A stretch of DNA of 64,000 bases. It comes from an uncultured virus (IMG/VR IMGVR_UViG_3300028800_000077). Taxonomy: Duplodnaviria; Heunggongvirae; Uroviricota; Caudoviricetes. The DNA lies in IMG/VR virus record IMGVR_UViG_3300028800_000077; one strand, given 5' to 3'. The position numbers and the translations under genes are program-made. Shown here in pieces: positions 4,002 through 37,032 of the stretch (within the stretch, counting starts at the first letter, position 1; the number at the start of each line of letters is the position of its first letter). The notes below the pieces were generated by a model. It was given only the letters and a program-made list of their open reading frames with translations. It ran no database searches and was not told where the DNA came from.

Positions 4002-5402
4002 CTACACGAGCGAGGCGGTTTCGATCTCGTGCATGAAGGCGAAGACCGCCTCGCTGAAGCCATCGATGTGCGTCCACTTCCCATAGCCCACGCCGTTCTT
4101 CGCGGAGGCGACGTTGATCATGTAACCCCGGCCCTTCGGATCGGGGAGCGTCTTCACGTTGCCGTGCAGGCGGTTGAAACCGTAGAGGCTGCTGGCCGAG
4201 CCGGTCGCCTGCTCGTCCGTCACCACAACGACGCGGTCGTAGTCGACGTGCGCGTTCAGGTGCGCGATGGAGTCGAACAGGAACGTGCCCTGATGCGGCT
4301 GGCTGTTCTTCAGCACATCCACGCCTGCCATGCCACGACGCGCCGGCACTTCAACCGTGCTGTTCGAGAACGAGAACATGCGGACGGCGTCGGCCGGAAA
4401 CATCGAGGCCAAAGCGCAGGCAGCATCCATGCGCGTCAGGTCCGACTTCGCCGACAGCTTCTCGTTCATCGAGTCCGACACGTCGACCACAACAGCCGTG
4501 CGGCCCGGCAGCTTGGGCATCGAGCCGATGCTGGCGATCAGCGCCGCATCAAGCTCGCGCTCGAAGCGGGGAGCCGCACGCGCCGCCGCGACGTAGCGGA
4601 ACGGCAGCACCATCTCGGCACCGCCCTTCTGTGCCACGATGGCCTCGCGCACCAGCGTCTCGTCGCAGCCGGCCTCGACCATGTTGCGCAGGTTGCGCAG
4701 CAGAGCGAGGTAGCCCAGCTTGCCCTCGCGGATCAGGCGCTCGAACGTGTCCTTCTTGCTCGCGCCTCCAGACAGGTTCGTCTCCCAAGTGTCAGGCGTC
4801 TCCAGCTTGCGCTCGGCGATGCGCTTGTAGAGCGCCGCGCGCTCGTCGTCGGCCGGCTCGGGATGCACGAGGAACATCACGTCGCGCAGCTTCACGGCAC
4901 CTTCGCGGTCGTACTTCGCGAAGTGGTATTCCTTGAAGTTGCCGAAGGCAGCCGCGAGGCCGCGCTTCATCTGCGCCGTGAGATCGCGCTGCTTCTGCGT
5001 CTGTCCAGCCTTCGGCTTCGTGGGCGGATTGGCCTTCCAGTAGAGCGAAATGAACTCGGCCATGTCGTCGACGCGGCGGATCACGTGCGGGATCGCATCG
5101 CCAAGGATCGGCGTGCCCGAGCCCGTCTTGGCCAGCGCCACGAGCAACCACAACGGCACGTGCCGCAGCTTGAACTGATTGCGCGCCTGAATGGCCAGCG
5201 CCGCCAGATCGGCGGGCGGCACGGCGAGCGCGAGTTCGCGGATGCGGTCGGCGACGCTGACGCCGTCCTCGTAGTGCTCGTCCTCCCAAAGCATGCACGA
5301 CAGGACAGAGCGACGGAGCGCCTGCATCGTGGTCATGCGAGCGGCCGGAGCACCCTCGGCCGTCTTCTCGGTGAACTTCAAAGCCTTGTTGGTACGAGCC
5401 AT
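4002..5402 (-). CDS. rsr: Ro60/Rsr TROVE-domain RNA-binding protein with C-terminal vWA domain
   Basis: EGAPA, LRRSVLSCMLWED..YEDG, KYDREGAVKLRDV, TPDTWE, ALLRNLRN, VLPFRY, vWA MIDAS DVSDSM, VTDEQ, IDGFSE; purine-rich SD GAAGGGAAG. Confidence 0.93.
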   Translation of the reverse strand: MARTNKALKFTEKTAEGAPAARMTTMQALRRSVLSCMLWEDEHYEDGVSVADRIRELALAVPPADLAALAIQARNQFKLRHVPLWLLVALAKTGSGTPILGDAIPHVIRRVDDMAEFISLYWKANPPTKPKAGQTQKQRDLTAQMKRGLAAAFGNFKEYHFAKYDREGAVKLRDVMFLVHPEPADDERAALYKRIAERKLETPDTWETNLSGGASKKDTFERLIREGKLGYLALLRNLRNMVEAGCDETLVREAIVAQKGGAEMVLPFRYVAAARAAPRFERELDAALIASIGSMPKLPGRTAVVVDVSDSMNEKLSAKSDLTRMDAACALASMFPADAVRMFSFSNSTVEVPARRGMAGVDVLKNSQPHQGTFLFDSIAHLNAHVDYDRVVVVTDEQATGSASSLYGFNRLHGNVKTLPDPKGRGYMINVASAKNGVGYGKWTHIDGFSEAVFAFMHEIETASLV

Positions 5403-5447
5403 GATCATCTTCCCTTCATCAAATTGAGAGTGACCCGGCAACAGTGC

Positions 5448-5582
5448 AGTGCAGGAACAAACGAAGACGGTAACGTGTGCGCTCTAACCGCTGAGCTACG
5501 CCGAAGATTGCCTCCGGCGACGGGACTCGAACCCGCGACCTCACCCTCCAATGGGAAGTAACCGTTCTCTACGCCATGCACT
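5448..5582 (-). ncRNA. yrlA: Y RNA, YrlA-type with permuted tRNA-like module (fifth of 5 in transcription order)
   Basis: Minus strand: terminal stem AGUGCA/UGCACU, handle UGGCGUAG..CGGUUACUUC/UUGUUCC, T-arm GCGGG-UUCGAGU-CCCGU, loop-closed acceptor-like stem, then D-arm UAGCUCAGCGGUUAGAGC; adjacent to Ro60. Confidence 0.88.
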
Positions 5583-5590
5583 ACATCGAA

Positions 5591-5721
5591 GCCGGGGAAC
5601 AAGCGATGACGGCACTGCCCTTGCGGGCTTTCCTTGCTCTACCACTGAGCTACCGAGGCGTTAGCCCCGAGGCGGGATCGAACCGCCGCACTAAGAAGTA
5701 GCCGTAACCTACGCCACCGAC
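5591..5721 (-). ncRNA. yrlA: Y RNA, YrlA-type (fourth of 5)
   Basis: Same handle; T-arm GGCGG-UUCGAUC-CCGCC, stem UCGGGGC-UAAC-GCCUCGG, D-arm UAGCUCAGUGGUAGAGC, extra GCCC-GCAA-GGGC hairpin. Confidence 0.85.
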
Positions 5722-6065: not shown

Positions 6066-6272
6066 CCCTCAAAATGAAAAGGGCCACCGACAGGGTGGCC
6101 CCTCACCGCTACCTCGCCAACTTCAACGCGAGGATGCACTTTGCGGAAAATGTAACTGGCCTCTACGCTTGGGTGCTCTACATGGCGGCCTCCGGGCTGC
6201 GGGACGCTCGGCCATCAACCTGCGTCAACTCCCGCAATTTGCGCGTCTCACCGGATGTTCGCAAGATTGGCG

Positions 6273-6468
6273 TTGCAAAAAAGTGACGGTCGGGCGCATG
6301 ATCCGCCCCGAAAAGCAGAATGCCTCGGCTTGTGAGGCCGAGGCATTCAAGGGACCGGCGACTGTGGACCGCGCGGCACCTGAGAGGGAGGGATGAAACT
6401 CCCAAGGGCTTGAATATAAGCCCAGCTTCTCCGTTGTCCATCGCGTTTTGACCGGATGCGGGGGCACC
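6273..6468 (+). promoter_or_regulatory. Putative promoter and structured leader of the replication operon
   Basis: TTGCAA-N18-CATGAT (6273-6302); perfect 12-bp hairpin 6318-6348; further hairpins GGGAG/CTCCC and GGGCTT/AAGCCC. Confidence 0.4.
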
Positions 6469-8506: not shown

Positions 8507-8537
8507 TTGCAAAATGAGAAAGCGTCCTCATATTGAG
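8507..8537 (+). promoter_or_regulatory. Repeated early promoter/operator box, copy 1
   Basis: TTGCAAAATGAG-N8-CTCATATTGAG. Confidence 0.75.
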
Positions 8538-9540: not shown

Positions 9541-9571
9541 TTGCAATTTGAGAAACAATCCTCAAATTGAG
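9541..9571 (+). promoter_or_regulatory. Repeated early promoter/operator box, copy 2
   Basis: TTGCAATTTGAG-N8-CTCAAATTGAG. Confidence 0.75.
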
Positions 9572-9603: not shown

Positions 9604-9777
9604 ATGACGAAGAAAGATTTTGAACTGATCGCGGACATCGTCGGCACCCTCACATGGGACGATCCCGAGACGGTCCGGGCTCACAAGGCCGGCGTCGTCG
9701 CCAACCGCCTCGCCGGCACGAACCCTCGGTTCGACAAGGATCGGTTCGTCAAGGCGGCCCTCGCGGTCAAGCACTAA
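9604..9777 (+). CDS. 57-aa conserved phage protein (not in ORF track)
   Basis: SD GGAG; MTKKDFELIA...NPRFDKDRFVKAA. Confidence 0.7.
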   Translation: MTKKDFELIADIVGTLTWDDPETVRAHKAGVVANRLAGTNPRFDKDRFVKAALAVKH

Positions 9778-9844
9778 CCCCACAACCCCGCCCAGCCCTG
9801 AGAAGCTGGTGCGGGGTCGGGGCGTTGAAAGAACCCACTGGAGA
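9778..9844 (+). repeat. Structured intergenic repeat R1
   Basis: ACCCCGC-CCAGC-CCTGAGAA-GCTGG-T-GCGGGGT then GGCGTTGAAA..GGAGA. Confidence 0.8.
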
Positions 9845-9849
9845 TTTTC

Positions 9850-10101
9850 ATGCTCACCTATCAGGAACCCGTTGGTCGTTACGTCGTGCTCAAGCACACC
9901 GATCTTCCCGAGGCTCACAAGGCCGAGTACCGCGCGGACGGCATCGACCCCGACACCATTTGGTCGCTGTACTACAGCACCAGCAGCGAGGCGGACGCCA
10001 AGCGGGTCCTCGCCGAGAGCATCGAGGAGGCCCGTAGTTACCAGACCTTCCGGTTCGAGGATCGCGGCGCACCCTCGGTCATCGAGCGGCCCGCCTACTA
10101 A
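9850..10101 (+). CDS. Hypothetical early protein
   Basis: SD GGAGA; bounded by R1 and R2. Confidence 0.65.
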   Translation: MLTYQEPVGRYVVLKHTDLPEAHKAEYRADGIDPDTIWSLYYSTSSEADAKRVLAESIEEARSYQTFRFEDRGAPSVIERPAY

Positions 10102-10102
10102 A

Positions 10103-10160
10103 CTCCACCAGCCCCGCTAGGCCCTGAGAAGCCTACGCGGGGCCGAGGTGTCAGAGGAGA
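10103..10160 (+). repeat. Structured intergenic repeat R2
   Basis: GCCCCGC-TAGGC-CCTGAGAA-GCCTA-C-GCGGGGC then GGTGTCAGAGGAG. Confidence 0.8.
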
Positions 10161-10165
10161 TCGCC

Positions 10166-10927
10166 ATGACCATCGAAGCATCGAACCGCGCGCCGCTCGT
10201 AGTAGCCTACGGCATGGGCGTGGACAGCACCGCGATGCTGATCGGCATGCACCAGCGCGGCGAGCGGCCCGACTTGATCCTGTTCGCCGACACGGGCGAC
10301 GAGAAGGCGGCGACCTACGCCTACCTGCCGACGATCAATGCGTGGTTGGCCGGCGTCGGCTTCCCGCAGGTCACTGTCGTCAAGAACGCGCGGCCGATCT
10401 CGGGCGACAAGAGCCTGTCGGATAGCTGCTTGCGGCTCGGCACCCTGCCGGCGCTCGCCTACGGCATGCACCAGTGCTCGCTCGTGTGGAAGCGCGATCC
10501 GCAGGTGAAGTTCATCAAGAAGTGGGAGCCGGCCGTTGCGGCGTGGGCGCGCGGCGAGCTTGTCACGACCTGCATCGGCTACGACGCCGGCCCGCGCGAT
10601 AGCTGCCGGTCCTACAAGGCCGAAGGAAAGGCCACGAAGGGCTTCACCAACCGCTTCCCGCTGATCGAGTGGGGTTGGGATCGCGAGGAGTGCGTTCGCC
10701 AGATCGCGGCGGCCGGACTGCCCGTGCCGGTGAAGTCGGCTTGCTTCCACTGCCCGGCCTCGAAGCTGGCCGAGATCGACTGGCTGGCCAAGTTTCAGCC
10801 CGAGCTTGCGGAGAAGGCCAAGGCGATGGAAGCCGGCGCGCACGCTCGCGGATTGAAGACGATCAAGGGCCTCGGCCGGAAGTTTAGCTGGACCGATTAT
10901 TTAGCGAAGCCGGCCCTTGCAAAATGA
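10166..10927 (+). CDS. PAPS-reductase-like (PP-loop) protein
   Basis: VAYGMGVDST, ILFADTGDE, CS...K..P, IGYDA, FPLIEWGWDREEC, KSACFHCP. Confidence 0.75.
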   Translation: MTIEASNRAPLVVAYGMGVDSTAMLIGMHQRGERPDLILFADTGDEKAATYAYLPTINAWLAGVGFPQVTVVKNARPISGDKSLSDSCLRLGTLPALAYGMHQCSLVWKRDPQVKFIKKWEPAVAAWARGELVTTCIGYDAGPRDSCRSYKAEGKATKGFTNRFPLIEWGWDREECVRQIAAAGLPVPVKSACFHCPASKLAEIDWLAKFQPELAEKAKAMEAGAHARGLKTIKGLGRKFSWTDYLAKPALAK

Positions 10928-10947
10928 GACGGCACTCTCATATTGAG
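10917..10947 (+). promoter_or_regulatory. Repeated early promoter/operator box, copy 3
   Basis: TTGCAAAATGAG-N8-CTCATATTGAG. Confidence 0.75.
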
Positions 10948-10979
10948 GGTGTCGAGACGCCAACCCCACGGAGATCAAG

Positions 10980-11165
10980 ATGTCTGTTCAAGCTGCTGTC
11001 GATGCCTTCAAGGAAGTGAAGGCCCATTCTGAGATCGCGCCCATCGATGCCTTTCGGTTCATCGACACCTACAAGGCGCAGACCGGCCATCGGCCGAGCC
11101 TGTCGGCGATGACCCTCCTGTACTTGCGCGAGAAGGCGCAGAGGGAGGCCCTTGAAAGCCGCTAA
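10980..11165 (+). CDS. Hypothetical early protein
   Basis: SD GGAGA after promoter copy 3. Confidence 0.6.
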   Translation: MSVQAAVDAFKEVKAHSEIAPIDAFRFIDTYKAQTGHRPSLSAMTLLYLREKAQREALESR

Positions 11166-11176
11166 CCGCGCGACAA

Positions 11177-11245
11177 CCCCAACAGCCCCGCCTCGGCCTG
11201 AGAACCGAGCGCGGGGTTAGGGCGTCGAGAGCAACCCAACGGAGA
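11177..11245 (+). repeat. Structured intergenic repeat R3
   Basis: AGCCCCGC-CTCGG-CCTGAGAA-CCGAG-C-GCGGGGTT then GGCGTCGAGA..GGAGA. Confidence 0.8.
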
Positions 11246-11250
11246 GATCG

Positions 11251-11484
11251 ATGAACGCCAAGACGCGCAAGGAACTGAACAAGATTTATTCCGAGATCGA
11301 GGGCCACAAGAACCGGCTCGAAGAAATCGCCTCGGAGGAGCAGGACAAGTTCGACAATTTGTCCGAGGGCCTGCAGGCCGCCGAGAGTGGCCAGAAACTT
11401 GAGCAGGCATCGAGCGACCTGCAGGAAGCGGTCGGAAGTCTTGAGGAGGCACTTGGCCAGATTGAGACGGTTCGAGACGCCTAG
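11251..11484 (+). CDS. Conserved acidic coiled-coil phage protein
   Basis: MN...RK.L...EEQDKFDNLSEGLQ....G. Confidence 0.7.
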   Translation: MNAKTRKELNKIYSEIEGHKNRLEEIASEEQDKFDNLSEGLQAAESGQKLEQASSDLQEAVGSLEEALGQIETVRDA

Positions 11485-11491
11485 AGGTTCA

Positions 11492-11551
11492 GCGCCCCAA
11501 CAGCCCCGCCACGGATTGAGCCCCGTGAGCGGGGCCAAGGCGTCAGAGGAG
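11492..11551 (+). repeat. Structured intergenic repeat R4
   Basis: GCCCCGC-CACGG-ATTGAGCC-CCGTG-A-GCGGGGC then GGCGTCAGAGGAG. Confidence 0.75.
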
Positions 11552-11561
11552 TATCACACCA

Positions 11562-11780
11562 ATGGCACGCAAACTTTCCACGAAGCAGATCGCCAAGCTG
11601 AACGACGAGCGCATCAACCGGCTTTGCGGCCAGCGCTGCAGCGGCGTCCAGATTTCCATCATGGACATCCCTAAGGTGTTCAAGGTGGCCAATCAGGCCA
11701 TCGTCGAGAACGCCGAGATCAGCGATCAGGCGCTCGGCGACAAGATCGCCGAGTACGTCAACACCATCCGCAAGAACTAG
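11562..11780 (+). CDS. Hypothetical early protein
   Basis: SD GAGGAG. Confidence 0.65.
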   Translation: MARKLSTKQIAKLNDERINRLCGQRCSGVQISIMDIPKVFKVANQAIVENAEISDQALGDKIAEYVNTIRKN

Positions 11781-11790
11781 GAGGAGCATC

Positions 11791-12066
11791 ATGGGACGGA
11801 ATTGGAAACCAAAGAAACCGCGCCGGCCATCGTGGCGGCTGCCGTTTCGGGTTGATTGCGGAAACGGTGTCCGCAGCGCCTTCAACGATTACTCGGAGGC
11901 GATGAACTACGGGCAGTGGCGCAGCGCGGTGTCTGGCGGCCGGACGGAGATCAGCAACAAGCACGGCGATCTCGTCGGCCAGTACAGCGCAGGGAAGACC
12001 ACGCCGGAGTTTTCTTCGCATCACGTCAGCGCCGGAGCGCCGGCCTACGCTCTGGATGGAGGCTGA
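11791..12066 (+). CDS. Hypothetical protein
   Basis: SD GGAGGAG. Confidence 0.6.
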   Translation: MGRNWKPKKPRRPSWRLPFRVDCGNGVRSAFNDYSEAMNYGQWRSAVSGGRTEISNKHGDLVGQYSAGKTTPEFSSHHVSAGAPAYALDGG

Positions 12067-12067
12067 C

Positions 12068-12238
12068 ATGGCACGCAAGCCCGTCAAACTGTCGGACGTT
12101 CGGACCATCCCGGCCTATGCGGTGATCATCCGCGCAACGTGGGAACGTGGCGCGGTTCAGGCCGAGGCATTGGCGGAACTGGATCGTCGAGGGTTGTGGC
12201 TGTCCGATGCGCAGCGCAAGCAAGCGGGGCTCGTCTGA
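12068..12238 (+). CDS. Hypothetical protein
   Basis: SD GGAGG; tight packing. Confidence 0.55.
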   Translation: MARKPVKLSDVRTIPAYAVIIRATWERGAVQAEALAELDRRGLWLSDAQRKQAGLV

Positions 12239-12239
12239 C

Positions 12240-12479
12240 ATGCCGATCCCCGATCCCCGTGGCTGGTCGCAAGATCAGCTTGCCGTCAAGGAAGGCCGCA
12301 AGGTCGTCGGCATCATTCAGCGCAAGCTGATCGATCAGGGCGACGTCGCGGCGAACGCGATCTACCCAAAGTACGAATACACGTCGCTGCATCTTGGCCG
12401 CGTCATCTACGGCGGCACGTCCTACGACAGCGCGGTCGACGCCTTCGGATCGGTCGATGCTTGGGGCTACGGAGGCTGA
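12240..12479 (+). CDS. Hypothetical protein
   Basis: ATG 1 nt after upstream stop. Confidence 0.5.
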   Translation: MPIPDPRGWSQDQLAVKEGRKVVGIIQRKLIDQGDVAANAIYPKYEYTSLHLGRVIYGGTSYDSAVDAFGSVDAWGYGG

Positions 12480-12480
12480 G

Positions 12481-12753
12481 ATGCAGAAGTACAGAGCCGA
12501 TATTGCTGAGAAGCAGAGCGACGGCGCGACCGTCTGGCGCGCGAACTGGATGGGCGGCAGGCCGCTCTCGAAGATCGTCGACTGCCGGCTGGACAATCTC
12601 GTCGGCGACATGCGGACCACGGTCTACATCACGGGCGAGCCCGACACGTGGTTCTCGACGCCGGCCGTCTGCCGGCTCTTTGGGAAGCGCGTCAAAGGCT
12701 ACGTCACTGGCGACGGCGACGGCAATCTCGTTTTTCGTCACTGCTACTACTGA
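12481..12753 (+). CDS. Hypothetical phage protein
   Basis: SD GGAGG; ITGEPDTWFSTPA...VKGYVT. Confidence 0.6.
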   Translation: MQKYRADIAEKQSDGATVWRANWMGGRPLSKIVDCRLDNLVGDMRTTVYITGEPDTWFSTPAVCRLFGKRVKGYVTGDGDGNLVFRHCYY

Positions 12754-12763
12754 GGAGCACAAC

Positions 12764-13294
12764 ATGACACGTCCAACCATCACGACGCCTTGCGCCGCCG
12801 ACCGACATCACACCGGAGCCGAGCGAATTGCCGAGTTTTCGACCAGCAAGGGACAAGGCGGCCTGATCTCAGTCCGAGAGATGGTCGATGGTTCTGCGCA
12901 GGTTTCGCTCTACCGTCTCGACAAGGGCACGGTCGTCTTCTGCGATCCCGAGCATTCTCGGCCGAGCACGAACAGCAAGGTTTTGGATGCTCTCGAAGCC
13001 GGCCGCCGCATGCTGGACGCGCTGCGCAGCTTGGAAGCGATCATGGCCACCATCATCACTGAGGCCGCACGCAGCGGCTACCGCGACCCCACGAACAAGA
13101 ACCCGTTCCCGCATTCGAGCCCGGCTTGGTACGGGTTCGAGGCTGGCCGCACGCATCGCCGGTCAGGGCGCACCGAGATCATCAAGGCCACCATGGGCCG
13201 AGGCTACACCGTCAACCTTGAGACGGCATCGCGGATGCGTCTCGTCGCCAAGTTTGGCGTCGCGCTGCCGCCGATCATCGAGCGGAAGGATTGA
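12764..13294 (+). CDS. Hypothetical protein
   Basis: SD GAGGAG. Confidence 0.6.
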   Translation: MTRPTITTPCAADRHHTGAERIAEFSTSKGQGGLISVREMVDGSAQVSLYRLDKGTVVFCDPEHSRPSTNSKVLDALEAGRRMLDALRSLEAIMATIITEAARSGYRDPTNKNPFPHSSPAWYGFEAGRTHRRSGRTEIIKATMGRGYTVNLETASRMRLVAKFGVALPPIIERKD

Positions 13295-13298
13295 ACCA

Positions 13299-13526
13299 AT
13301 GGCCGACCATATTAGCCCGACCACGCGCGTCCTGTTGGACATTACCGACGCGGTGCGGCCCGAGAAGCTATCGTGGAGTGAGTTCATCATCTTGGCGTCG
13401 CACCTGCCGGCTGGCACGGTGGAGCGCATCGAGGGCGCGCTGTTAAGATCGCCGCCGGGCACTGCGATCTATGTCGAGGGGCCGGCGACCGACCGCGTCA
13501 CGGTCAAGCTGGAGGCCAAGCCGTGA
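13299..13526 (+). CDS. Hypothetical protein
   Basis: SD AAGGA; coupled to next gene. Confidence 0.5.
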   Translation: MADHISPTTRVLLDITDAVRPEKLSWSEFIILASHLPAGTVERIEGALLRSPPGTAIYVEGPATDRVTVKLEAKP

Positions 13527-13771
13527 GCCGGCCCATCGAGATCGGCGACAAGGTCGCCTATTCGGCGGACTTCCTGCGTGACACGGTCCAGCAGGCCAGC
13601 CCGGACGACAAGGGTGGCTGGCGCGGCGTCGTCACGGCCATCGACGGCGGCCCGGATTGGCGGCTTTGCGTCGTCGACTGGAACGACCGGCAGGGCCGGA
13701 AAATTGGCCAAGGCCGCGTGCTGGACAAGAACCTAGCTAGGGAGGGATCGCCTCAGATGTATGCCCGCTAG
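13523..13771 (+). CDS. Small SH3-like beta protein
   Basis: IEIGDKV...RGVVTAI...VDW...NL. Confidence 0.55.
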   Translation: MSRPIEIGDKVAYSADFLRDTVQQASPDDKGGWRGVVTAIDGGPDWRLCVVDWNDRQGRKIGQGRVLDKNLAREGSPQMYAR

Positions 13772-13799
13772 GGGCTCGAAAATAGGCGCGGGGAGGCTA

Positions 13800-13831
13800 T
13801 TGCAAAATGAGATGCCTCCCCTCATATTGAG
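13800..13831 (+). promoter_or_regulatory. Repeated early promoter/operator box, copy 4
   Basis: TTGCAAAATGAG-N9-CTCATATTGAG. Confidence 0.75.
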
Positions 13832-13887
13832 ACTGTCAAAGACGCTTTCGGTCGGATGGTCCGGCCGGGCAGAGAGAGAAGGATGAA

Positions 13888-15012
13888 ATGCAAAAAGGTT
13901 TGTCACTGACTGAGTTGGCCGCTCGCATCGAGGGCCTGAAGACTGAGAAGAAGGACTTCATCGCGGACACGTCCGCTGTGACGATGCTCGACGGCACTGC
14001 CACGGGCAGCGCTCCGAAGCTCGCGGTTGCTGGTCAGGGCGAGTTCCCGATCCGCCCGCTGGCTCACAACCAGATCGCCGGCCGCCTCGGCATCCCGTCG
14101 AAGTATTACGACCGGATGCTGGCCGAGCAGCCCACGTTGTTGGCGAACAATGTCAATACGTGGTTTCACGCCAACCCCGAGAAGCGGATGATCCGCACGC
14201 TGAAGGCCGAGACGCGCGCCTTCTTGTCGAACCGCTACCAGCGGATCGAGAACGAGGAGATTGCGCAGGTTGCCCTGCCGATCCTGCTCAACATCCCCGA
14301 GGTGAAGATCGTCTCGTGCGAAGTCACCGAGCGCCGGATGTATATCCAAGCCGTCAGCCCGCGTGTCGAGGGCGAGGTGAAGCGCGGCGACGTCGTGCAG
14401 GCCGGCGTCGTGATCAGCAACAGCGAGATCGGCTTCGGCGCGGTGTCGGTGTCGCCGATGATCTACCGCCTCGTGTGCCTGAACGGCATGATCGCGCCGG
14501 ATGGCAAGTACCGCGCCTACCACGTTGGTCGGCAGGTCGAGGACAACGCGGCTCTGTGGGCGCAGGACACGCAGCAGGCCGATGACCGTGCGGTGCTCCT
14601 CAAGGTGCGCGACATGGTGACGGCGGCGGTCGACGCGGTTCGCTTCTCGGAGCGCGTGGCCAAGATGGCCGGGCTGACCGACATCAAGATCGGCGCGAAC
14701 CCGGCGGCTGCCATCGAAGTGCTCGGCCAGAAGATTGGCGCGACGCAGGACGAGACTGGCGGCATCCTGAAGGCGCTGATCGAGGGCGGCGACCTGTCGG
14801 CTTGGGGCGTGCTGAACGCCGTGACCGCTCAGGCGCATACCGCGAAGTCCTATGACCGCGCGGTGGAGTTCGAGGCGGCCGGCGGCCAGTTGCTTGAGTT
14901 CAAGCCGGCCGAGTGGCGCGAAGTTCTCGACGCCAGCGTCGCTTCCAAGCGTCGCCGCAGCGCCGCCACGGTGATCGACGCCACCTTCACCGAAGTCAGC
15001 CAAGCGGCTTAG
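13888..15012 (+). CDS. DUF932-like protein
   Basis: AHNQIA..LGIP.KYY, RAFLSNRY..I.N, GVVISNSE.G, YRLVCLNG, WG..NAVT. Confidence 0.75.
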   Translation: MQKGLSLTELAARIEGLKTEKKDFIADTSAVTMLDGTATGSAPKLAVAGQGEFPIRPLAHNQIAGRLGIPSKYYDRMLAEQPTLLANNVNTWFHANPEKRMIRTLKAETRAFLSNRYQRIENEEIAQVALPILLNIPEVKIVSCEVTERRMYIQAVSPRVEGEVKRGDVVQAGVVISNSEIGFGAVSVSPMIYRLVCLNGMIAPDGKYRAYHVGRQVEDNAALWAQDTQQADDRAVLLKVRDMVTAAVDAVRFSERVAKMAGLTDIKIGANPAAAIEVLGQKIGATQDETGGILKALIEGGDLSAWGVLNAVTAQAHTAKSYDRAVEFEAAGGQLLEFKPAEWREVLDASVASKRRRSAATVIDATFTEVSQAA

Positions 15013-15023
15013 GAGCCCGCAAA

Positions 15024-15081
15024 CCCCTCGCCCCGCTCGGCCCTGAAAAGCCGACGCGGGGTTGAGGCGTCGAAAGAGGAG
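15024..15081 (+). repeat. Structured intergenic repeat R5
   Basis: GCCCCGC-TCGGC-CCTGAAAA-GCCGA-C-GCGGGGT then GGCGTCGAAAGAGGAG. Confidence 0.8.
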
Positions 15082-15085
15082 CATC

Positions 15086-15487
15086 ATGAGCACGCTGATC
15101 GAAAAGATGGCCATGGCCATCGTCGCCCACAAGCACTGCGAGGTTGGCGCTGTTGTTGCGGAAGGTTGGCGCGACCGCTGGGCCGCGCGGTTGGAGCACA
15201 TAGAGCGCAACGCTTTGCCCAGCGGCAGCGGCATCGACGCCGGCACGAAGATCGACGTTGATCGCAGCACGCTCGACAAGATCGTTCTGACGACATCGTT
15301 TCATCACATGGACGAGAGCGGCGGATACAACGGTTGGTCCGATCATACGGTTGTCGTGACGCCGTCTTTCGTCTCGAACTTCGAGATCAATGTGACCGGA
15401 CGCAATCGCAACGGCATCAAGGAATATCTGGCCGACACGTTCCGCGCCGCGCTGGATGCGCCCTACGAATACACGGACATCATCTAA
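15086..15487 (+). CDS. Conserved phage protein
   Basis: LPSGSGID.G, FHHMDE.G.Y.GW.DH.V.VTPS. Confidence 0.65.
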   Translation: MSTLIEKMAMAIVAHKHCEVGAVVAEGWRDRWAARLEHIERNALPSGSGIDAGTKIDVDRSTLDKIVLTTSFHHMDESGGYNGWSDHTVVVTPSFVSNFEINVTGRNRNGIKEYLADTFRAALDAPYEYTDII

Positions 15488-22057: not shown

Positions 22058-22705
22058 ATGCTCCACCTTGATTTTGGTTGCCAAGAGAGTAGTTTCCCTT
22101 CCCTAGCCAAAAGCTGGCCCGGCACCGCAACCGATAGCGGTGCGGTAGCCGTAGTGGGGGATTTTCCGCTGAGACGCTGGTACGTTGCGACCACGCAGCC
22201 TTGTGCTGAGCTTGTCGCCGAGGAGCAGCTTGGCCTACAGGGTTTTCAGCCCTTTGTGCCCAAGTGCCTGATCACACGCACGACCCGAGGGCGTCGCGTG
22301 ACCACCGAGCGTCCCTACCTGCCGAGCTACGTCTTCGTGCGGTTCGACATCCACGAAGACTACTGGGGCGCAATCAACAACACTCGCGGCGTGAAGCGCC
22401 TGATCTGCGGCGCTCCCGAGCGGCCATCGCCGATTCGTGACGAGGCGATGAAGATCATCCTTGATCGCTGCATTGGCCAGTACGTCAAGGCCGAGGAGAT
22501 CGACACGGCATGGTCCGGGCTGATAAAAGCCGGGACGATAATTCGCGTGACAGATGGGCCGTTCGAGGGGTTCGAGGGGCCGGTCATGTGGTCGCAAGCT
22601 GATCGCGTGCGAGCGCTGTTCACGTTCTTCGGCGCGCAGCGGGAAATCCCGTTGAACGTCAAGCAGGTTCGAGTTGTAGGCGAGGCAGCACGAAGGGTCG
22701 CGTGA
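22058..22705 (+). CDS. NusG/RfaH-family transcription antiterminator (true start may be GTG 22154)
   Basis: NGN: WYVATT, F.PFVP, PYLPSYVFVRFD, INNTRGV; KOW: GT.IRVTDGPFEGFEG, FFG. Confidence 0.88.
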   Translation: MLHLDFGCQESSFPSLAKSWPGTATDSGAVAVVGDFPLRRWYVATTQPCAELVAEEQLGLQGFQPFVPKCLITRTTRGRRVTTERPYLPSYVFVRFDIHEDYWGAINNTRGVKRLICGAPERPSPIRDEAMKIILDRCIGQYVKAEEIDTAWSGLIKAGTIIRVTDGPFEGFEGPVMWSQADRVRALFTFFGAQREIPLNVKQVRVVGEAARRVA

Positions 22706-28429: not shown

Positions 28430-28819
28430 ATGTGGCTTCCGATGGATGATCCGAGGCTTGAGAACTACAAGGACCAGATGATCATGGCGCATATCGTGCG
28501 CCAGCGTCAGACGGGCGACGCCAAGCCGGAGCATCTCATGATGTTTGCGCGCTGGCACAAGGACCTGCAGCAGTGGCTCGACATGACCACGATGCAGTCC
28601 GATGGCTTCGTGGAGTGGGCGTCGCTTCCCGAGACGTTTGCGCGCGAGAAGTTGAGCACCGAGATGATGGTGGCATGGGACCTTGGCTATCCGTTGCGCA
28701 CGGTCGAGGACATCATGCGCGAGGTTGATCGTCGGCGGGTGAACGAGGCGCAGGCGAACGGCGCGCACAGCGACGAGGGCGGCCTGTACTCGACGGCCAA
28801 GAATGGCGCGTCCGCCTAA
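28430..28819 (+). CDS. Hypothetical protein
   Basis: SD GAAGGG. Confidence 0.5.
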   Translation: MWLPMDDPRLENYKDQMIMAHIVRQRQTGDAKPEHLMMFARWHKDLQQWLDMTTMQSDGFVEWASLPETFAREKLSTEMMVAWDLGYPLRTVEDIMREVDRRRVNEAQANGAHSDEGGLYSTAKNGASA

Positions 28820-30242
28820 GTATCTGCCGGCGGTGCAGCCCAACGCCGGGCTGCGCGTGATGTACGACAAGCGGATCATGAAGCTGATCCGCAAGATGGT
28901 CGACGACGTGACCGACGCGGTGCTCAAGGTCTACGAGGAGAACCCGCCGCGCGTCGCCGAGCTTGCCGCCGCGATGGCCGAGGACGCCTTCGACCCGAGC
29001 GAGCGCCGCGACGAGGAGGGACGATGGACCGAGGGCGGCGGTGCAGGAAAGTCCGCTCAGGTGCATACGCCAGAGTTCAAGGCGTGGTTCGGAAAGAGCA
29101 AGGCGGCATCTCGCGGTGTGCCGATGGTCGTCTATCACGGGACCGGAGAACTCGGCATTAAGGAGTTCAACACGGAGACGGGCGCGTGGTTCTCCACGAA
29201 GCCGGCGCTGGCCGACAAGTATTCTGGCGCGAAGTCATATGGCGAGGGTCAATCGCCAACGGTTTATCCGGTGTTTCTCAAGATCGAGAAGCCGGTCGTG
29301 ATCAAGAAGGACATGAACGACAAATCGACCTACGCAGAGATACGCAAGCTCACGGGCTTGAACTTCACAGTCGGCAAGTACGGCGATGAAGTGGTCGACG
29401 GCACCGAGCAAAAGTTTCTGGTGCATCGGATCATTCACACGCCGGAGTTCGTCGCGGCAGCCAAGGCGGCCGGCTATGACGGCGTGAAGGTGAACGAGGG
29501 CAAGATACCGACGTTCGCCGTGTTCGATCCGAAGCAGGTCAAGAGCGCCTACGGCAACAAGGGCACGTTCGATCCGAATAGCCCGGTGATCACGGACATG
29601 GCGATGGACGAGCTACCGTCCGATCAGTTGCGCCGGCTGTTCAGGGAACTCTCGAAGCAGTGGCGCGCGAGCTTCGACACCGGGGCGCAGGAACTTGCGG
29701 AGTATTTCGCGCAGGCGGCCAGCCAGCGCAGTGACATGCAGTTGAAGGCGATCTTGACGAAGGCCGGCTTCGCCGTGGCGTTCAAGCTGACGCCAGCGCA
29801 GAGGGACATCCTCGAAGCGGTCGTGGCCGAGAACGTGACGCTGATCAAGAGCATCCCCGAGCAATACCTGACTGCGGTCGGTGGCGCGGTGATGCGGTCG
29901 GTGCAGACGGGGCGTGACGTCGGCGGGCTGCGCAAAGAGCTTGAGGAGCAGTTCGGTGTCACACGAAGGCGGGCGTCTCTCATTGCGAGAGATCAAAATC
30001 AGAAAGCTACATCCGCTTTCAATAGGGCGAGGCAGCTTGAGATAGGGGTGACAAAGGCGCGCTGGAAACATTCTCATGCGGGAAAGACGCCGCGCCCTAC
30101 GCACTTGGCAAACGATGGCAACCTCTACGATGTCGCGACTGGATGGTATGATCCGCACGAGAAAGAATGGATTTGGCCCGGTCAGCTTATAAATTGTCGA
30201 TGCACCAGCCAGTCATTGTTTCCGGGGTTGCAGCGTCCGTAA
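28803..30242 (+). CDS. MuF/gp7-type minor head protein with inserted ART-PolyVal-like domain
   Basis: PNAG..Y...I..LI..M N-terminus; [24 protein letters not shown].....[14 protein letters not shown]; insert [31 protein letters not shown]. Confidence 0.88.
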
Positions 30243-32511: not shown

Positions 32512-35500
32512 GTGCCGCTCCAGAAGGGCTCGTCGCAGGCTGCGATCTCGGCGAACATCGCCGAGCTTGTCCGCGCGGGCCATCCGCAGAAGCAGGCCGA
32601 GGCCATCGCCGAGAAGACGGCGCGCGGCAACGACGATTTCAGCGACCTGATCTATCAGTTCCTCTCGCAGAAGGCGTGGTGGGACTACCCGCGCAAGCTG
32701 GTGAAGGACGCGGCCTCGAAGCGCAAGATCGCGAAGCTGATCTCGGGCTTCGTCGGCGACGGCTTCGATCCGAGCGAGCAGCGCGAAGCCGATGGCAAGT
32801 GGACCGCCGGTGGTGGTGGCCTCCAGAAGGGCGCTAAGAAAAACACCAAATGGACAGTCGCTCACGTCGGGAAAAACAAAGTAGAGGTCGCGATCAACCC
32901 CACGCAGGACGACATCGAGACGTTGCTCGCGAACGCTGACGACGACGATCCTTCGGTTCGACTGATCAAAGACACCGATGGGAAGGTGTACGCTTGGGAT
33001 GGGTTTTGGGCGACCCATCGCAGGATGGCGGACGTCCTTGGTATTACGCCGGACGAAATGGATGAGGGTTTTGGCTTCCCGTTGGCTTGGAAGGACGGGC
33101 GCAAGCTCAAGTTCACTGACGACAGCGGCAGCGTTATCGACAAGAAAGGCTGGATCGCTCAGGACGAATACGATCCGGGTGAGCCGCGCGAACAGGACGG
33201 CAAGTGGACGAGCGGCGGCGGTGGCGGTGGTGCTGCGCCCAAGCCCAAGGCAGCGAAGCCAAACCGAGAGAAGACCAACACGCCGGCCTTCAAGAACTGG
33301 TTTGGCAAGAGCAAGGTCCGAAGCGCCACGGGCAAGCCGCTCGTGCTGTACCACGGCACCACGGTCGACTTCGATCAGTTCGACCGCTCGAAGGCGAACC
33401 CGGAAAGCGACTGGGGCTCAGGTTTCTACTTCACTAACACGCCGGAAGACGTGTCGGTGAACTACGCCGGCTTCGGGCCGGACCTGACGAACAAGATTCA
33501 GAACCGCGCCGAGCAAATCGCAGGCGAGGAGGACAAGAACTACGACGACCCCGACATCCAAGCCCGTGCGCGTGCCGAGTTCGCACAGCATGAGGGCGCG
33601 GTGATGCCGGTCTACCTCAAGATGGACAAGCCGTTCGTGGTCGGTGGCGACAACGAGACGAGCTTGGACTACGAGGAGGAGCGCGACGACGAGGGCGAGC
33701 CGACCGGAGTAGAGAAGGGCACGCTCGTCGACTTCATCAAGAACCTTCGCGGGATCGCCGAGGAGTACCACGACGGAGACGTCGATGATCTGGTCGGCAA
33801 GCTGGTTGAGGCTGGCTATGGCGGCGGCATCTCGGCTTCTGATCTCTCGAAGCTCGCAAGCGAGGACGAGAAGTTCGGTTACTACACGGACGACGACGGA
33901 AAACTCGTCTCGAAGGAAATCCTGCGCCGCGCGCTGCAAGAGACTGGCTTCGATGGGATTGTAGATCACACCGTCGACACGAAGTTCGGAAGCTCGAAGA
34001 AGATCGGCAAGCCCATGGAGGGCGTGACGCCGGACACGACACACTACATCGCGTTCGAGCCGACGCAGATCAAGAGCGCCAGCGGCAACAAGGGCACCTA
34101 CGATCCCAAGTCGCCGAAGGTCAACGACGAATGGAACGAGGCCGATCATCCTCGCGGCCAGCCGGAGAATGCGGGCGAGTTCGCGAGCAACCCGAGCGGC
34201 GGCGCGTCGGCCCAGCCGCCGGCACCGCCAGCGAAGGAGCCGCATCCCGAGGTGGTGAACGTCGGCGGCGACTTGTGGAACAAGAAAACAGCCGGGCGTC
34301 TGGAGAACGAGTACGTCGCGGCCTATCCTGAGATCGACAAGATCGTTACGAAATCGGTCGGCGAGACTGCGCCGGCCGCCGCGAGCGAGGAAGACGAAGA
34401 CGAATCGGACGATGATGCGCCCTACATTCCCGAAGACTGGGACATGGTGAGCGACGACGACAAAGAGGAGACGAAGAACAAGTGGAAGCAGGACGCCTTC
34501 GATGACTTCTACAACAGCGAAGTCGAAAGCTGGATCGACAACGGCGACCAACTGAAAGAGTCCGTCGAGAACGTCGTCAACGATTTCAAGGATGGCAGCG
34601 AACGCGACTGGGCGCACGAGGCGATCCAAGACTACTTGGACGACAACGACGGGGAGAACGGCAAGGCGATCCCGTTCACGACCGAGCAACTGTTGAGCGC
34701 CATCAACGTGGAATCGGTCGATGCGGGAAAATACAGCGACAGCAAGGAAGTCGACGCGAGCTTCGACGAGGACGTGCTGGAGAAGTTGGCCGCCGCTGCC
34801 GGCGTGAAGCCGGACGTTCTCAGCGAGGACGTGCGGAAGGATTTGCTCGATGCCGTCAACAAGGAAGGCAACGCCTACGCCGAGAAGGTCGCCTACAAGG
34901 TCGATCCGCCTGAGTACCTGAAGGACGGCGTTGACGAGCAGGAAGAAGACTACTGGGATCAGATCGAGGACAAGCAGAAGTTCAAGCACGCCGAGCAGTA
35001 TCTAAGCCACAAGTGGGAGCAGGCCGTCTCCGATCACGGGGCGTCGAAGGACGATGACGCCGAGGGCGATGAGATTACGGCGCTCCCGAAGAAGTTCGAT
35101 CCGATGCAGTCGGATGAGGGCTCGCAGAATTACAAGCTGACGCAGCAAGTCGCCCGGCATGTGAGCGTCCAGCGCGCGGCCGACCTTATCAAGCAGCGCG
35201 GCCTGTCGAAGCTCTCGGCTGGCAATCTATTCGGGACCATCTCGCATCTGGATGGGAAGATTTGGCACGCATGGAAGGGCAGTTCCACAAGCCCCGACGC
35301 TATCGCGCTGCAGGTCGCGGTCGCTGACGAACTGGGCGGCCGGCTCTACGAGTTCAAGGATGTGTCCCGTCAGCGCGGCGTCGACTACGCCAACAGCAAC
35401 TACGCCAGCATCGGCGGCTACGAGGGCCTGAAAGCCTACGTCCGCGCGAAGTGGGAGACGACGCAGTACATGATGGACAAGGCCGGCATCCACACGGTCG

Positions 35501-37032
35501 AAGCCTATCGCGGGATCGACAAGCCGGACGCCTACGGAGAGCCGGCCAAGTTCACCGTCGACATCCATTCTGCCATTGAAGCGGGCAAGAAAGAATTGAC
35601 CGCTGAAAAGAATCTCGCGCTCGGCAAGGAGGTTTCGGAGAACAACGACTACGACGAGCAAGTGAAGATTGTCGGGTACTACCAAGGCAAGATGGACGAA
35701 CTGAACATGATCGATCAGTTGCGCCCGTTGGAGTTCGGCAACAAGTCCGACGCCGACAACTACGTCAAGCGCATCCGCTCGAAGTTCGAGAAGAAGGAGG
35801 AGCACAAGCTCAACCTGAAGCCGTTCAAGACGGAACTGCTGACGAAGCTGCGTGAAGACGTGAAGGAGATCGACAAAAAGTTCGACGAGTCTGCGCTGGG
35901 TCGCCGTTTCACCGAGGAGGAGTACAAGGCGAAGAAGGATGCGCTGGCTGAGATTTATCACAAGCGAGATCAGATCGTGGGTGAGTTCGCGCGCAGTCCT
36001 TACTCCACCAACAGCGGAGACGCGGCATCTGCTCCAACGCGCGCAGGCATCGAACAGATGATCGACGTGAACAAGGTAATGACGCCGGAGCAGAAGGCGG
36101 CAGCCAAGGCGGCCATCGTGTCGACGCCAGAAGTGAAAGCGCCGTGGCTCGACAAGATGGTGACAGCAGAGATTCCGGCATCGGGCGGCTCGCGTCAGGA
36201 GCCGGTGAAGGCGGGCTACGCCGACGAGCCGTTCGTGAAGCTGCCGGACATGCACATCGACCGGAACGGTTGCGCGTCGACGTCGCTCAAGGCGGGCGTC
36301 TCGAATGACTGGGACGGTGACGAGCATCGTGTCGTCTTGCGCGTGCAGGTGCCGCGTACCGCAGTGATCTCGGTGCCGGCTTACGGCATCAACATCAAAG
36401 CGGAGCGTGAAGTGGTCGTGGCTGGTACGGCTTGGAACAAGTGGGATGCGTGGGCGCACAAGGCCCCGGAGTTTGGCGTGCTGCCGATGGACGGCATGAA
36501 GTCTGACGATCTTGCGCTTGCGGCCGAGCCGGCGAATGCTTCGCCAAAGCCGTCATGGAAGGTCGCCGAACTTCTCAAGCCCGGTGGTCAGGCGTGGGAA
36601 ATGACGCCGACGGAAGTCGAGAAGTATGCGGACTATCAGAAGCTCTCGCCCGAGGACAAGGCGGCACTGATCGCCGGTCACGCGGCGCTCTACAAGGACT
36701 GGACAGCGCCGAAGGCGGAGGGCGGCATGGACCCGGCGGAAGCGGATAAGTGGGCCGAGCATTTGAGCCTTTCGGACAACGACAAGGCCGCGCTCGTGGC
36801 TGGCCATGTGAAGCTGTCGGACTTGGCGTCGAAGGATGACATCGAGGACGCGAAGCTGAAGATGCACATCAACAAGGGCAACGCGGCGTGGGCGAAGCAG
36901 GAGGCCGACGCGAAGAAGGCGTGGGAAGCGATGACGCCTGAGCAACAAGCGCAGGCCAAGGCCGACACCGACAAGTATGTGAAGGAAATGTCCGCCGAGA
37001 TGGACAAGGCAGAGTTGGCGCAGGCGGCGTGA
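32512..37032 (+). CDS. 1506-aa multidomain putative internal head protein: three tagged modules including ART-PolyVal-like and R-S-E ADP-ribosyltransferase-like domains
   Basis: MPLQKG.SQ..IS.NI.EL..AG.PQKQA.AIA N-terminus; tags at 32761, 33166, 34129; LYHGT..GFYFT..GFDGI..QIKSA; AYRG (35503), ASTS (36274), EREVVV (36403). Confidence 0.75.
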   Translation: MPLQKGSSQAAISANIAELVRAGHPQKQAEAIAEKTARGNDDFSDLIYQFLSQKAWWDYPRKLVKDAASKRKIAKLISGFVGDGFDPSEQREADGKWTAGGGGLQKGAKKNTKWTVAHVGKNKVEVAINPTQDDIETLLANADDDDPSVRLIKDTDGKVYAWDGFWATHRRMADVLGITPDEMDEGFGFPLAWKDGRKLKFTDDSGSVIDKKGWIAQDEYDPGEPREQDGKWTSGGGGGGAAPKPKAAKPNREKTNTPAFKNWFGKSKVRSATGKPLVLYHGTTVDFDQFDRSKANPESDWGSGFYFTNTPEDVSVNYAGFGPDLTNKIQNRAEQIAGEEDKNYDDPDIQARARAEFAQHEGAVMPVYLKMDKPFVVGGDNETSLDYEEERDDEGEPTGVEKGTLVDFIKNLRGIAEEYHDGDVDDLVGKLVEAGYGGGISASDLSKLASEDEKFGYYTDDDGKLVSKEILRRALQETGFDGIVDHTVDTKFGSSKKIGKPMEGVTPDTTHYIAFEPTQIKSASGNKGTYDPKSPKVNDEWNEADHPRGQPENAGEFASNPSGGASAQPPAPPAKEPHPEVVNVGGDLWNKKTAGRLENEYVAAYPEIDKIVTKSVGETAPAAASEEDEDESDDDAPYIPEDWDMVSDDDKEETKNKWKQDAFDDFYNSEVESWIDNGDQLKESVENVVNDFKDGSERDWAHEAIQDYLDDNDGENGKAIPFTTEQLLSAINVESVDAGKYSDSKEVDASFDEDVLEKLAAAAGVKPDVLSEDVRKDLLDAVNKEGNAYAEKVAYKVDPPEYLKDGVDEQEEDYWDQIEDKQKFKHAEQYLSHKWEQAVSDHGASKDDDAEGDEITALPKKFDPMQSDEGSQNYKLTQQVARHVSVQRAADLIKQRGLSKLSAGNLFGTISHLDGKIWHAWKGSSTSPDAIALQVAVADELGGRLYEFKDVSRQRGVDYANSNYASIGGYEGLKAYVRAKWETTQYMMDKAGIHTVEAYRGIDKPDAYGEPAKFTVDIHSAIEAGKKELTAEKNLALGKEVSENNDYDEQVKIVGYYQGKMDELNMIDQLRPLEFGNKSDADNYVKRIRSKFEKKEEHKLNLKPFKTELLTKLREDVKEIDKKFDESALGRRFTEEEYKAKKDALAEIYHKRDQIVGEFARSPYSTNSGDAASAPTRAGIEQMIDVNKVMTPEQKAAAKAAIVSTPEVKAPWLDKMVTAEIPASGGSRQEPVKAGYADEPFVKLPDMHIDRNGCASTSLKAGVSNDWDGDEHRVVLRVQVPRTAVISVPAYGINIKAEREVVVAGTAWNKWDAWAHKAPEFGVLPMDGMKSDDLALAAEPANASPKPSWKVAELLKPGGQAWEMTPTEVEKYADYQKLSPEDKAALIAGHAALYKDWTAPKAEGGMDPAEADKWAEHLSLSDNDKAALVAGHVKLSDLASKDDIEDAKLKMHINKGNAAWAKQEADAKKAWEAMTPEQQAQAKADTDKYVKEMSAEMDKAELAQAA

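Follow-up and report, generated by a model that had tools for sequence, protein, structure and literature searches.

Structured RNA signals between the cistrons of phage operons are known as a broad kind, and several described systems resemble the element analysed here. In T7-like phages, RNase III hairpins occur in several intercistronic copies on the polycistronic early transcript and have no U-tract; a site of this type is a double-stranded RNA of about 20 bp (about two helical turns), as a rule interrupted by an internal loop. After cutting, the upstream message retains a hairpin and the downstream message begins with a short leader. The nut site of phage lambda combines boxA with boxB, a 5-bp stem with a 5-nt loop, in untranslated RNA. 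Stable, translatable operon segments are associated with the Rhodobacter puf operon hairpin, with REP elements and with the plastid intercistronic expression element. The NusG paralog LoaP needs a small leader RNA hairpin of the UNCG type (PMC12691694), and the phiKZ terminator motif is described as a GC-rich hairpin repeated as a shared motif behind genes (PMC10914365). The PeSLs of T4-like phages are short, conserved stem-loop repeats amid small, variable early genes, built as composite terminator and promoter units at which gene content changes (PMC4122927, PMC2839356), a precedent for gene shuffling at repeats (PMC4122927). Here, a stretch of 64,000 nucleotides from an uncultured virus of the Caudoviricetes (IMG/VR record IMGVR_UViG_3300028800_000077), referred to as the window, was analysed for a bulged hairpin with a downstream linear box, which an original prediction made from the sequence alone had placed in five copies between small early genes.

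The window is a phage genome segment with a G+C content of 63%, in which the genes lie nearly all on the + strand and comprise replication genes, many small open reading frames (ORFs), and the genes for a NusG paralog, terminase, portal and contractile tail; the nearest related record (G001) covers the late region only. A covariance model (R1) was built from 21 instances and used to search the window with filters off. Five matches scored 68-79 bits, all of them on the + strand within 9.7-15.1 kb and none elsewhere in the 64 kb. Everything else scored 17 bits or less, and the next-best matches were the reverse strands of the five sites. A strict pattern with up to two mismatches gave four matches against 0.00 expected from 100 shuffles, and the fifth copy (11503-11535), which has a deviant loop, was recovered by a looser pattern. 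All five predicted copies were thus confirmed by both the patterns and the model, whereas the starts originally given for them (9778, 10103, 11177, 11492 and 15024) lay 6-11 nt upstream of the first paired base (Table 1).

The hairpin is GC-rich and comprises 12-13 bp in total. In the outer stem of 7-8 bp, N-CCCCGC pairs with GCGGGG-N; it is followed by an inner stem of 5 bp and a loop of 7-8 nt across instances, and a single bulged base of any identity sits at a fixed position on the 3' strand. As the original prediction had stated, the inner stem was different in every copy of the window and paired in all five, the bulge measured 1 nt in 5/5 copies, and a U-tract was absent at all of them. 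The claim of a fixed loop held for its size of 8 nt (5/5) and not for a single sequence, since copies 1-3 carried CCUGAGAA, copy 4 AUUGAGCC and copy 5 CCUGAAAA. The loop AUUGAGCC and the inner stem of copy 4 were also found in two other phages. Elsewhere the loop types YUAGGAC (7 nt), CAUGACAC and CGUGACAA occurred, with two to four types inside one genome, and all loops had a U-N-R turn at a constant place.

Exactly 4 nt past the hairpin lies the box RGGMGUC, followed by purines. Among 38 distinct full-length class-1 rows from all sources, the tail had the consensus Y-Y-R-R-G-G-M-G-U-C plus a purine run without length variation, and the spacing between hairpin and box contained no indel (38/38), with 10 nt from the stem to the C of the box. 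The positions of the box were conserved at G66 (38/38), G63 (36), G64 (35), U67 (35) and C68 (32). The box resembles a Shine-Dalgarno (SD) sequence, and AGGAG was present in 11/38 rows. Each copy sits between a stop codon and the next SD, in agreement with the original prediction; the distance from the stop codon to the hairpin was 7, 9, 19, 18 and 17 nt, and that from the hairpin to the ATG was 32, 22, 33, 26 and 23 nt for copies 1-5, respectively. In the window and its relatives the latter distances fell into two classes: in the short class (22-26 nt) the box leads straight into the SD, and in the long class (32-36 nt) a CA-rich spacer precedes it. The same order of box, CA-rich spacer and SD was found behind the third of four promoter-like repeats (10917), where the hairpin is absent, so that the earlier observation that the tail of copy 3 resembles this leader was borne out. 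The hairpins and the box were always on the sense strand, co-oriented with the genes. In the window, copies follow the first gene behind three of the four promoter repeats, and no separate promoter repeat precedes the genes that directly follow copies 1, 2 and 4.

Covariation was assessed in 50 distinct rows. The outer six pairs were fixed by the search patterns and are therefore uninformative, while the inner five pairs and the closing pair had been left free. Stem pairing was found in 98.3% of 597 cells compared with 80.0% in shuffles, and 7 of 12 pairs showed compensatory changes on both sides. The covariation score was 0.480 versus 0.138 and was reached by 0/500 shuffles; when the partners were slid out of register, pairing fell to 30-50%. 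Among 41 distinct pattern matches outside the window, the inner stem was paired at 5/5 positions in 23 and at 4/5 in 10, against a chance of about 0.7% per match for 5/5 inner pairs (hand arithmetic); eight of the 41 were probably chance, and two of the 4/5 matches paired in another register. At one site in four related phages, where the gene downstream shares 77-88% identity, the inner stem was different in each phage. Between phages in general, the identity of the element was 58-71% and that of the flanks 51-63%, which is the random level (random 79-nt pairs: mean identity 52, maximum 61). The closing pair was A-U in 18, G-C in 15 and G-U in 14 of 48 instances. Because the copies are co-oriented with the genes and the closing pair is G-U in 14/48, action at the RNA level is favoured over action at the DNA level. 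These results show that the structured cis-element is real and strongly covarying, in line with the original prediction.

The strict pattern was found at 14 loci in the viral collection and 34 loci in the metagenome collection, compared with 7 loci in the genomes of 185,579 species (one genome each). Only one of these 7 loci (L222) had the bulged form, and two others paired in another register. The hairpin element is therefore phage-borne, and a REP-like repeat of the host genome was rejected on the same counts. With the covariance model, 2-4 full-length copies were found in six related contigs of 57-79 kb (G002, G004, G006, G010, G011 and G014), always clustered and co-oriented with small genes, and one hairpin-only match was found in each of six more contigs; four contigs sharing only a PAPS-reductase-like gene gave no match. 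Overall, at least 7 related phage contigs carry 2-5 copies each, and additional contigs of viral and metagenomic origin have the element as well. In a broad pattern scan of viral contigs, 7 of 80 loci among the matches listed fitted the model, three of them above 40 bits, and the matches were mostly chance. A second context class was also recognised, in which the same hairpin precedes, in this order, YUUC, GGUGCC and another hairpin. It occurred as a single copy in each of the phage contigs L192, L202, L207, L213, L029, L185, L019, L199 and L205, with the hairpin 45-58 nt ahead of the next start. In G011 and G006, the syntenic site behind a gene of the DUF932 family carried a strong but plain hairpin, again spaced 4 nt from the box. 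Since plain hairpins replace the bulged one there, the core of the element is a strong hairpin plus the box.

In Rfam 15, no match was obtained at the gathering score in the whole window and none at the copies (9700-15150) up to E 5, so that the element, as originally proposed, is not assignable to a known family. Full-text literature searches found no description of a hairpin-plus-box element; the combination of features is new. Compared with the T7-like RNase III hairpins, which have no conserved loop or linear box, both are conserved here and the conserved helix is only 12-13 bp, although single-sequence folds reach 17-20 bp in each window copy. The puf hairpin, REP elements and the plastid element differ in having no conserved loop, no bulge and no box at a fixed distance, the plastid element being a single strand bound by protein. 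A boxB-like antitermination site, one of the functions first suggested, did not hold up; the likeness is superficial, because the similar letters are split between the 8-nt loop and the variable stem, atop an outer stem of 7-8 bp, and because the bulged stem of 12-13 bp carries loops that vary within one genome. Relative to the nut site with its 5-bp stem and 5-nt loop, the order is also reversed here, the hairpin coming first. A nut site is moreover read by one cognate N-like, arginine-rich protein that recognises one loop type; here, two to four loop types occur per genome, and the one basic protein seen, of 91 amino acids, is not conserved in relatives. Nevertheless, nut sites and the LoaP leader hairpin share with the element a hairpin joined to a linear box in untranslated RNA; in addition, the window copies stand behind the first gene after a promoter and the phage encodes a NusG paralog. 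The LoaP type is a small UNCG hairpin that lies in an operon leader ahead of a NusA-dependent terminator (PMC12691694), whereas the present loop is not UNCG, the copies are intercistronic, 2-5 in number and of several loop types, and they also occur in a complete four-copy phage without the paralog.

Other candidates were rejected as follows. The element is not a canonical intrinsic terminator, since it has no U-tract and copies 1, 2 and 4 lead into genes that lack a promoter repeat; a terminator scan listed none of the five copies. Relative to the phiKZ motif (PMC10914365) and to intrinsic terminators, at most 2-3 U occupy the first three positions after the stem, and the sequence then becomes G-rich. 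A PeSL unit was excluded because the promoter repeats (8507, 9541, 10917 and 13801) are separate from all five hairpins; the hairpin unit has no promoter, and both the host and the phage group differ from those of the PeSLs. The core boxes of an integron attC site do not fit the flanks, which on the upstream side are rich in C with CAAC, ACAG or UCG at the end and on the downstream side mostly have GUC and not GUU in the box, and no integrase was found among the 111 distinct window ORFs scanned. ARAGORN called no transfer RNA (tRNA) at the copies, its sole call in the window being at 5510-5591 (-). A CcrM site (GANTC) was present only in the GGAGUC variant of the box (11/38 rows). An extracytoplasmic function (ECF)-type or sigma-70 promoter inside the unit was dismissed by eye, because the loop-adjacent stem position is variable and no -10 lies at the right distance.

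Gene order was compared around the copies. The 61-amino-acid gene at 10980-11165 has homologues in G006, G010 and G011, and the element lies directly behind it in all four phages, with three different loop types and differing next genes. Between this gene and a common 216-amino-acid gene there are 0 (G011), 2 (G006) or 4 (G010) extra genes bounded by copies. Similarly, the element stands behind the DUF932 gene of the window and of G004 and behind a distant homologue in G010, and the gene that comes after the site is a different one in each phage. Single genes with a copy on either side were found in the window and five relatives, and the genes downstream of copies are mutually unrelated. Cassette turnover was not deduced from the bracketed orphan genes, since ORFs that lack homologues abound throughout these loci and are not enriched between copies. 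Gene order behind the element differed in several pairs of phages, and the flanks, being at random-level identity, are too diverged to show recent exchange. Likewise, the suggestion of a recombination handle agrees with the changing gene content in the four phages with the 61-amino-acid gene, while no integrase or other recombinase was found among the 111 distinct window ORFs scanned against Pfam, and the attC core boxes are lacking. Because gene order changes at the copies, a secondary role as recombination points is probable, and the pattern fits the exchange described for PeSLs.

Our best guess from these sequence comparisons is that the element acts as a conserved, phage-borne, cis-acting RNA module at the cistron boundaries of polycistronic early or accessory transcripts. 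For its mechanism, a probability of roughly 0.4 is given to a post-transcriptional gene-boundary module, which would combine a decay barrier or processing determinant with a standard leader. The stable hairpin would block exonucleases and/or direct an adjacent endonucleolytic cut. This would leave a protective hairpin at the end of the upstream cistron and give the downstream cistron a standard leader, unstructured and ribosome-friendly, of the kind that the promoter at 10917 would supply to a primary transcript. As a side effect, the islands of nucleotide identity may serve as crossover points for the gain, loss and reordering of genes. The boundary module is favoured because the unit is coupled to the start region of the next gene, with hairpin, box, spacer and SD travelling together before unrelated genes, and because the hairpin-free leader at 10946-10979 suits a leader element and not a hairpin-dependent pause.

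Several observations weigh against the boundary module. A plain decay barrier would need no conserved loop, fixed bulge or invariant box, and 12-13 bp is short for RNase III. Single-sequence folds lengthen the helix through base pairs between the C-rich 5' flank and the G-rich box, and this basal helix was examined in a flank swap with 45 instances. The cognate flanks gave -10.5 kcal/mol, non-cognate flanks -9.1 kcal/mol and shuffled upstream flanks -8.7 kcal/mol; 0/5000 permutations were as low as the cognate energy, but the advantage is small. The six extra in-register pairs were paired in just 2 to 29 of 42-45 cells, and the variable box position did not match its upstream complement. With no column-wise covariation and no fixed register, the basal helix was rejected as a conserved structure, which weakens a T7-type RNase III reading; we take the pairing of flank and box to be compositional and the box to be conserved as sequence. 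Furthermore, the likeness of the leader at a promoter is one clear case, and the 10 nt between the stem and the C of the box are a geometry that would likewise suit a hairpin-stabilised pause of RNA polymerase.

This geometry leads to a possible, if tentative, second reading, a co-transcriptional signal in which the nascent hairpin and box would halt or attenuate RNA polymerase at cistron boundaries and might load an elongation factor. Such a two-part site, like those of nut and NusG-paralog leaders, would set the polarity of the early operon and could be overridden later. It explains the 10-nt distance and the sequence conservation of the box better than the boundary module does, given that the stem-box spacing is strict and is kept even in the plain-hairpin variants and that the box is kept as sequence rather than as a pairing partner; the position of copies behind the first gene after three of four promoter repeats and the 2-3 U directly after the stem in some relatives also point this way. 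The G+C-rich box, however, would form a strong RNA-DNA hybrid, the reverse of what a terminator has, and one box lies immediately after a promoter, in a place that allows no hairpin to form. No clear terminators were found downstream on the + strand (15 versus 15.1 expected), and three or four loop types per genome would be odd for one loop-reading factor. As for the factor itself, a NusG paralog (PF02357) is encoded by 5/6 multi-copy relatives, but it is absent from G006, which is rated 100% complete and has four copies, and only 2 of 14 further contigs with the paralog, many of them fragments, had an element match. Ro60/TROVE was found in 0/10 element-bearing relatives, in a search without a positive control whose empty answer shows little. 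Neither of these two proteins, named in the original prediction as possible partners, therefore tracks the element consistently. In favour of the co-transcriptional reading, the NusG paralog LoaP depends on a small hairpin in leader RNA (PMC12691694). A more specific version, in which the element is a new two-part RNA signal where polymerase pauses 10 nt past the stem and is loaded with, or freed from, an elongation factor (the NusG paralog or host NusA/NusG), is unlikely.

The remaining readings rank behind these two, which lie close together. It is rather doubtful that the element is an operator for a phage or host RNA-binding protein controlling translation of the next gene, with the bulged hairpin and box forming one binding surface near the ribosome landing site. 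The fixed bulge position, the conserved loop types with their U-N-R turn, the invariant, SD-like box (AGGAG in the 11 rows mentioned) and the start 22-36 nt downstream would suit an operator; nevertheless, the hairpin covers neither the SD nor the ATG, plain hairpins substitute for it at the DUF932 site, the downstream genes are mutually unrelated, and no conserved candidate protein was found, the basic 91-amino-acid protein encoded at 11791-12066 being without a homologue in the six relatives. Still less credence is given to a DNA-level recombination or mobility site, integron attC-like or REP-like, moving single-gene cassettes. The bracketed single genes, the different genes and the 0, 2 or 4 extra genes behind the 61-amino-acid gene, the differing genes at the DUF932 site and the PeSL precedent (PMC4122927) argue for it. 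On the other side stand the missing recombinase, the divergence of the flanks, the lack of enrichment of bracketed orphan ORFs, and the invariable sense orientation with constant positioning relative to the stop codon, the SD and the start; the consensus of the attC core boxes is not matched either. Finally, it is very improbable that the element imitates a host RNA, for example a CRISPR repeat or tRNA arm, and so acts as a decoy titrating a host defence or processing protein. Six pairs are identical between the outer stem and the stem of the Escherichia coli type I-E repeat, and the 5-bp inner stem with its 7-8-nt U-turn loop loosely resembles an anticodon arm; however, a 19-nt insert stands where the CRISPR repeat has a short loop, the flanks are unlike the repeat handles, the ARAGORN and Rfam searches were negative at the copies, and the element is tied to gene starts.

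Table 1. Hairpin copies, their tails and the related leader in the window (columns: feature, position, strand, composition, model score in bits, next ATG)
Copy 1 hairpin	9785..9817	+	inner stem CCAGC/GCUGG, loop CCUGAGAA, bulge U	78.6	
Copy 1 tail	9818..9833	+	4-nt spacer, GGGCGUU box, purine run		9850
Copy 2 hairpin	10111..10143	+	inner stem UAGGC/GCCUA, loop CCUGAGAA, bulge C	76.6	
Copy 2 tail	10144..10159	+	AGGUGUC box merging into SD AGAGGAG		10166
Leader behind promoter repeat 10917	10946..10979	+	box, CA-rich spacer and SD as in copy 3 tail; no upstream hairpin		
Copy 3 hairpin	11185..11217	+	inner stem CUCGG/CCGAG, loop CCUGAGAA, bulge C	72.9	
Copy 3 tail and long leader	11218..11250	+	GGGCGUC box, CA-rich spacer, SD		11251
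Copy 4 hairpin	11503..11535	+	inner stem CACGG/CCGUG, loop AUUGAGCC, bulge A	68.4	
Copy 4 tail	11536..11551	+	AGGCGUC box, purine run		11562
Copy 5 hairpin	15030..15062	+	inner stem UCGGC/GCCGA, loop CCUGAAAA, bulge C; behind DUF932 gene	74.6	
Copy 5 tail	15063..15078	+	AGGCGUC box, purine run including SD		15086

Further features were observed in the window. The four promoter-like repeats (8507-8537, 9541-9571, 10917-10947 and 13801-13832, all +) consist of TTGCAA, a spacer of 16-17 nt and CATATT, followed by GAG; the spacer contains the inverted repeat ATGAG...CTCAT and resembles an operator inside a promoter. Just before the fourth repeat, the segment 13763-13793 (+) has the same outer-stem letters with an unpaired interior and overlaps the stop codon of the ORF at 13523-13771. 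It was rejected as a sixth copy, since the covariance model gave no match and its fold was no better than those of shuffles; it may be a decayed copy of the hairpin. Canonical terminators do exist in this phage, as two long-stem hairpins with U-tails were found at 6078-6104 and 6318-6348 (-), with 11 and 12 pairs, respectively. Both lie downstream of a promoter-like site at 6440-6413 (-; match 10/12), where leftward and rightward genes diverge, and may yield short RNAs.

The NusG paralog (22058-22705, +; PF02357, E 1e-18; PHROG annotation 'transcription antiterminator') is encoded upstream of the small terminase gene, a position like that of a late-gene antiterminator. A TROVE/Ro60 gene lies at 4002-5441 (-), and two matches resembling YrlA, a Y RNA-like RNA, were detected directly upstream of it (5476-5717, -) below the gathering score (37.5 bits, E 6e-6; 32 bits, E 3e-4). 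The tRNA-like fold called by ARAGORN lies within this YrlA-like stretch beside the Ro60 gene, which together with these matches is likely to form a phage Ro60 plus Y RNA module. The 91-amino-acid protein encoded at 11791-12066 (+) has a very basic, proline-rich N-terminus and an isoelectric point of 9.9. The C-terminal part of a 208-amino-acid protein (559-1185, +) weakly matched ribosome modulation factor (PF04957, E 3e-5, below the curated cut-off). Large virion-region proteins with ADP-ribosyltransferase (ART-PolyVal) domains are encoded at 28803-30242, 32512-37032 and 37029-40178 (+); among the large proteins of this region are one ART-PolyVal-MuF fusion and a 1049-amino-acid protein combining NUDIX and DUF2213.

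Structured RNA signals in phage operons are known from few model phages, and the hairpin-plus-box element adds a well-defined case that is absent from Rfam and occurs widely, in phage contigs from 34 metagenome loci and the viral collection. If the two-part signal were true, a non-lambdoid myovirus would time its early-to-late switch through many nut-like sites, and the rapid divergence of the inner stem would prevent mispairing between copies. As a compact and portable unit, the element could serve as an insulator part in operon design for high-GC bacteria. It also marks points at which accessory genes are swapped, which aids the reading of mosaic phage genomes.

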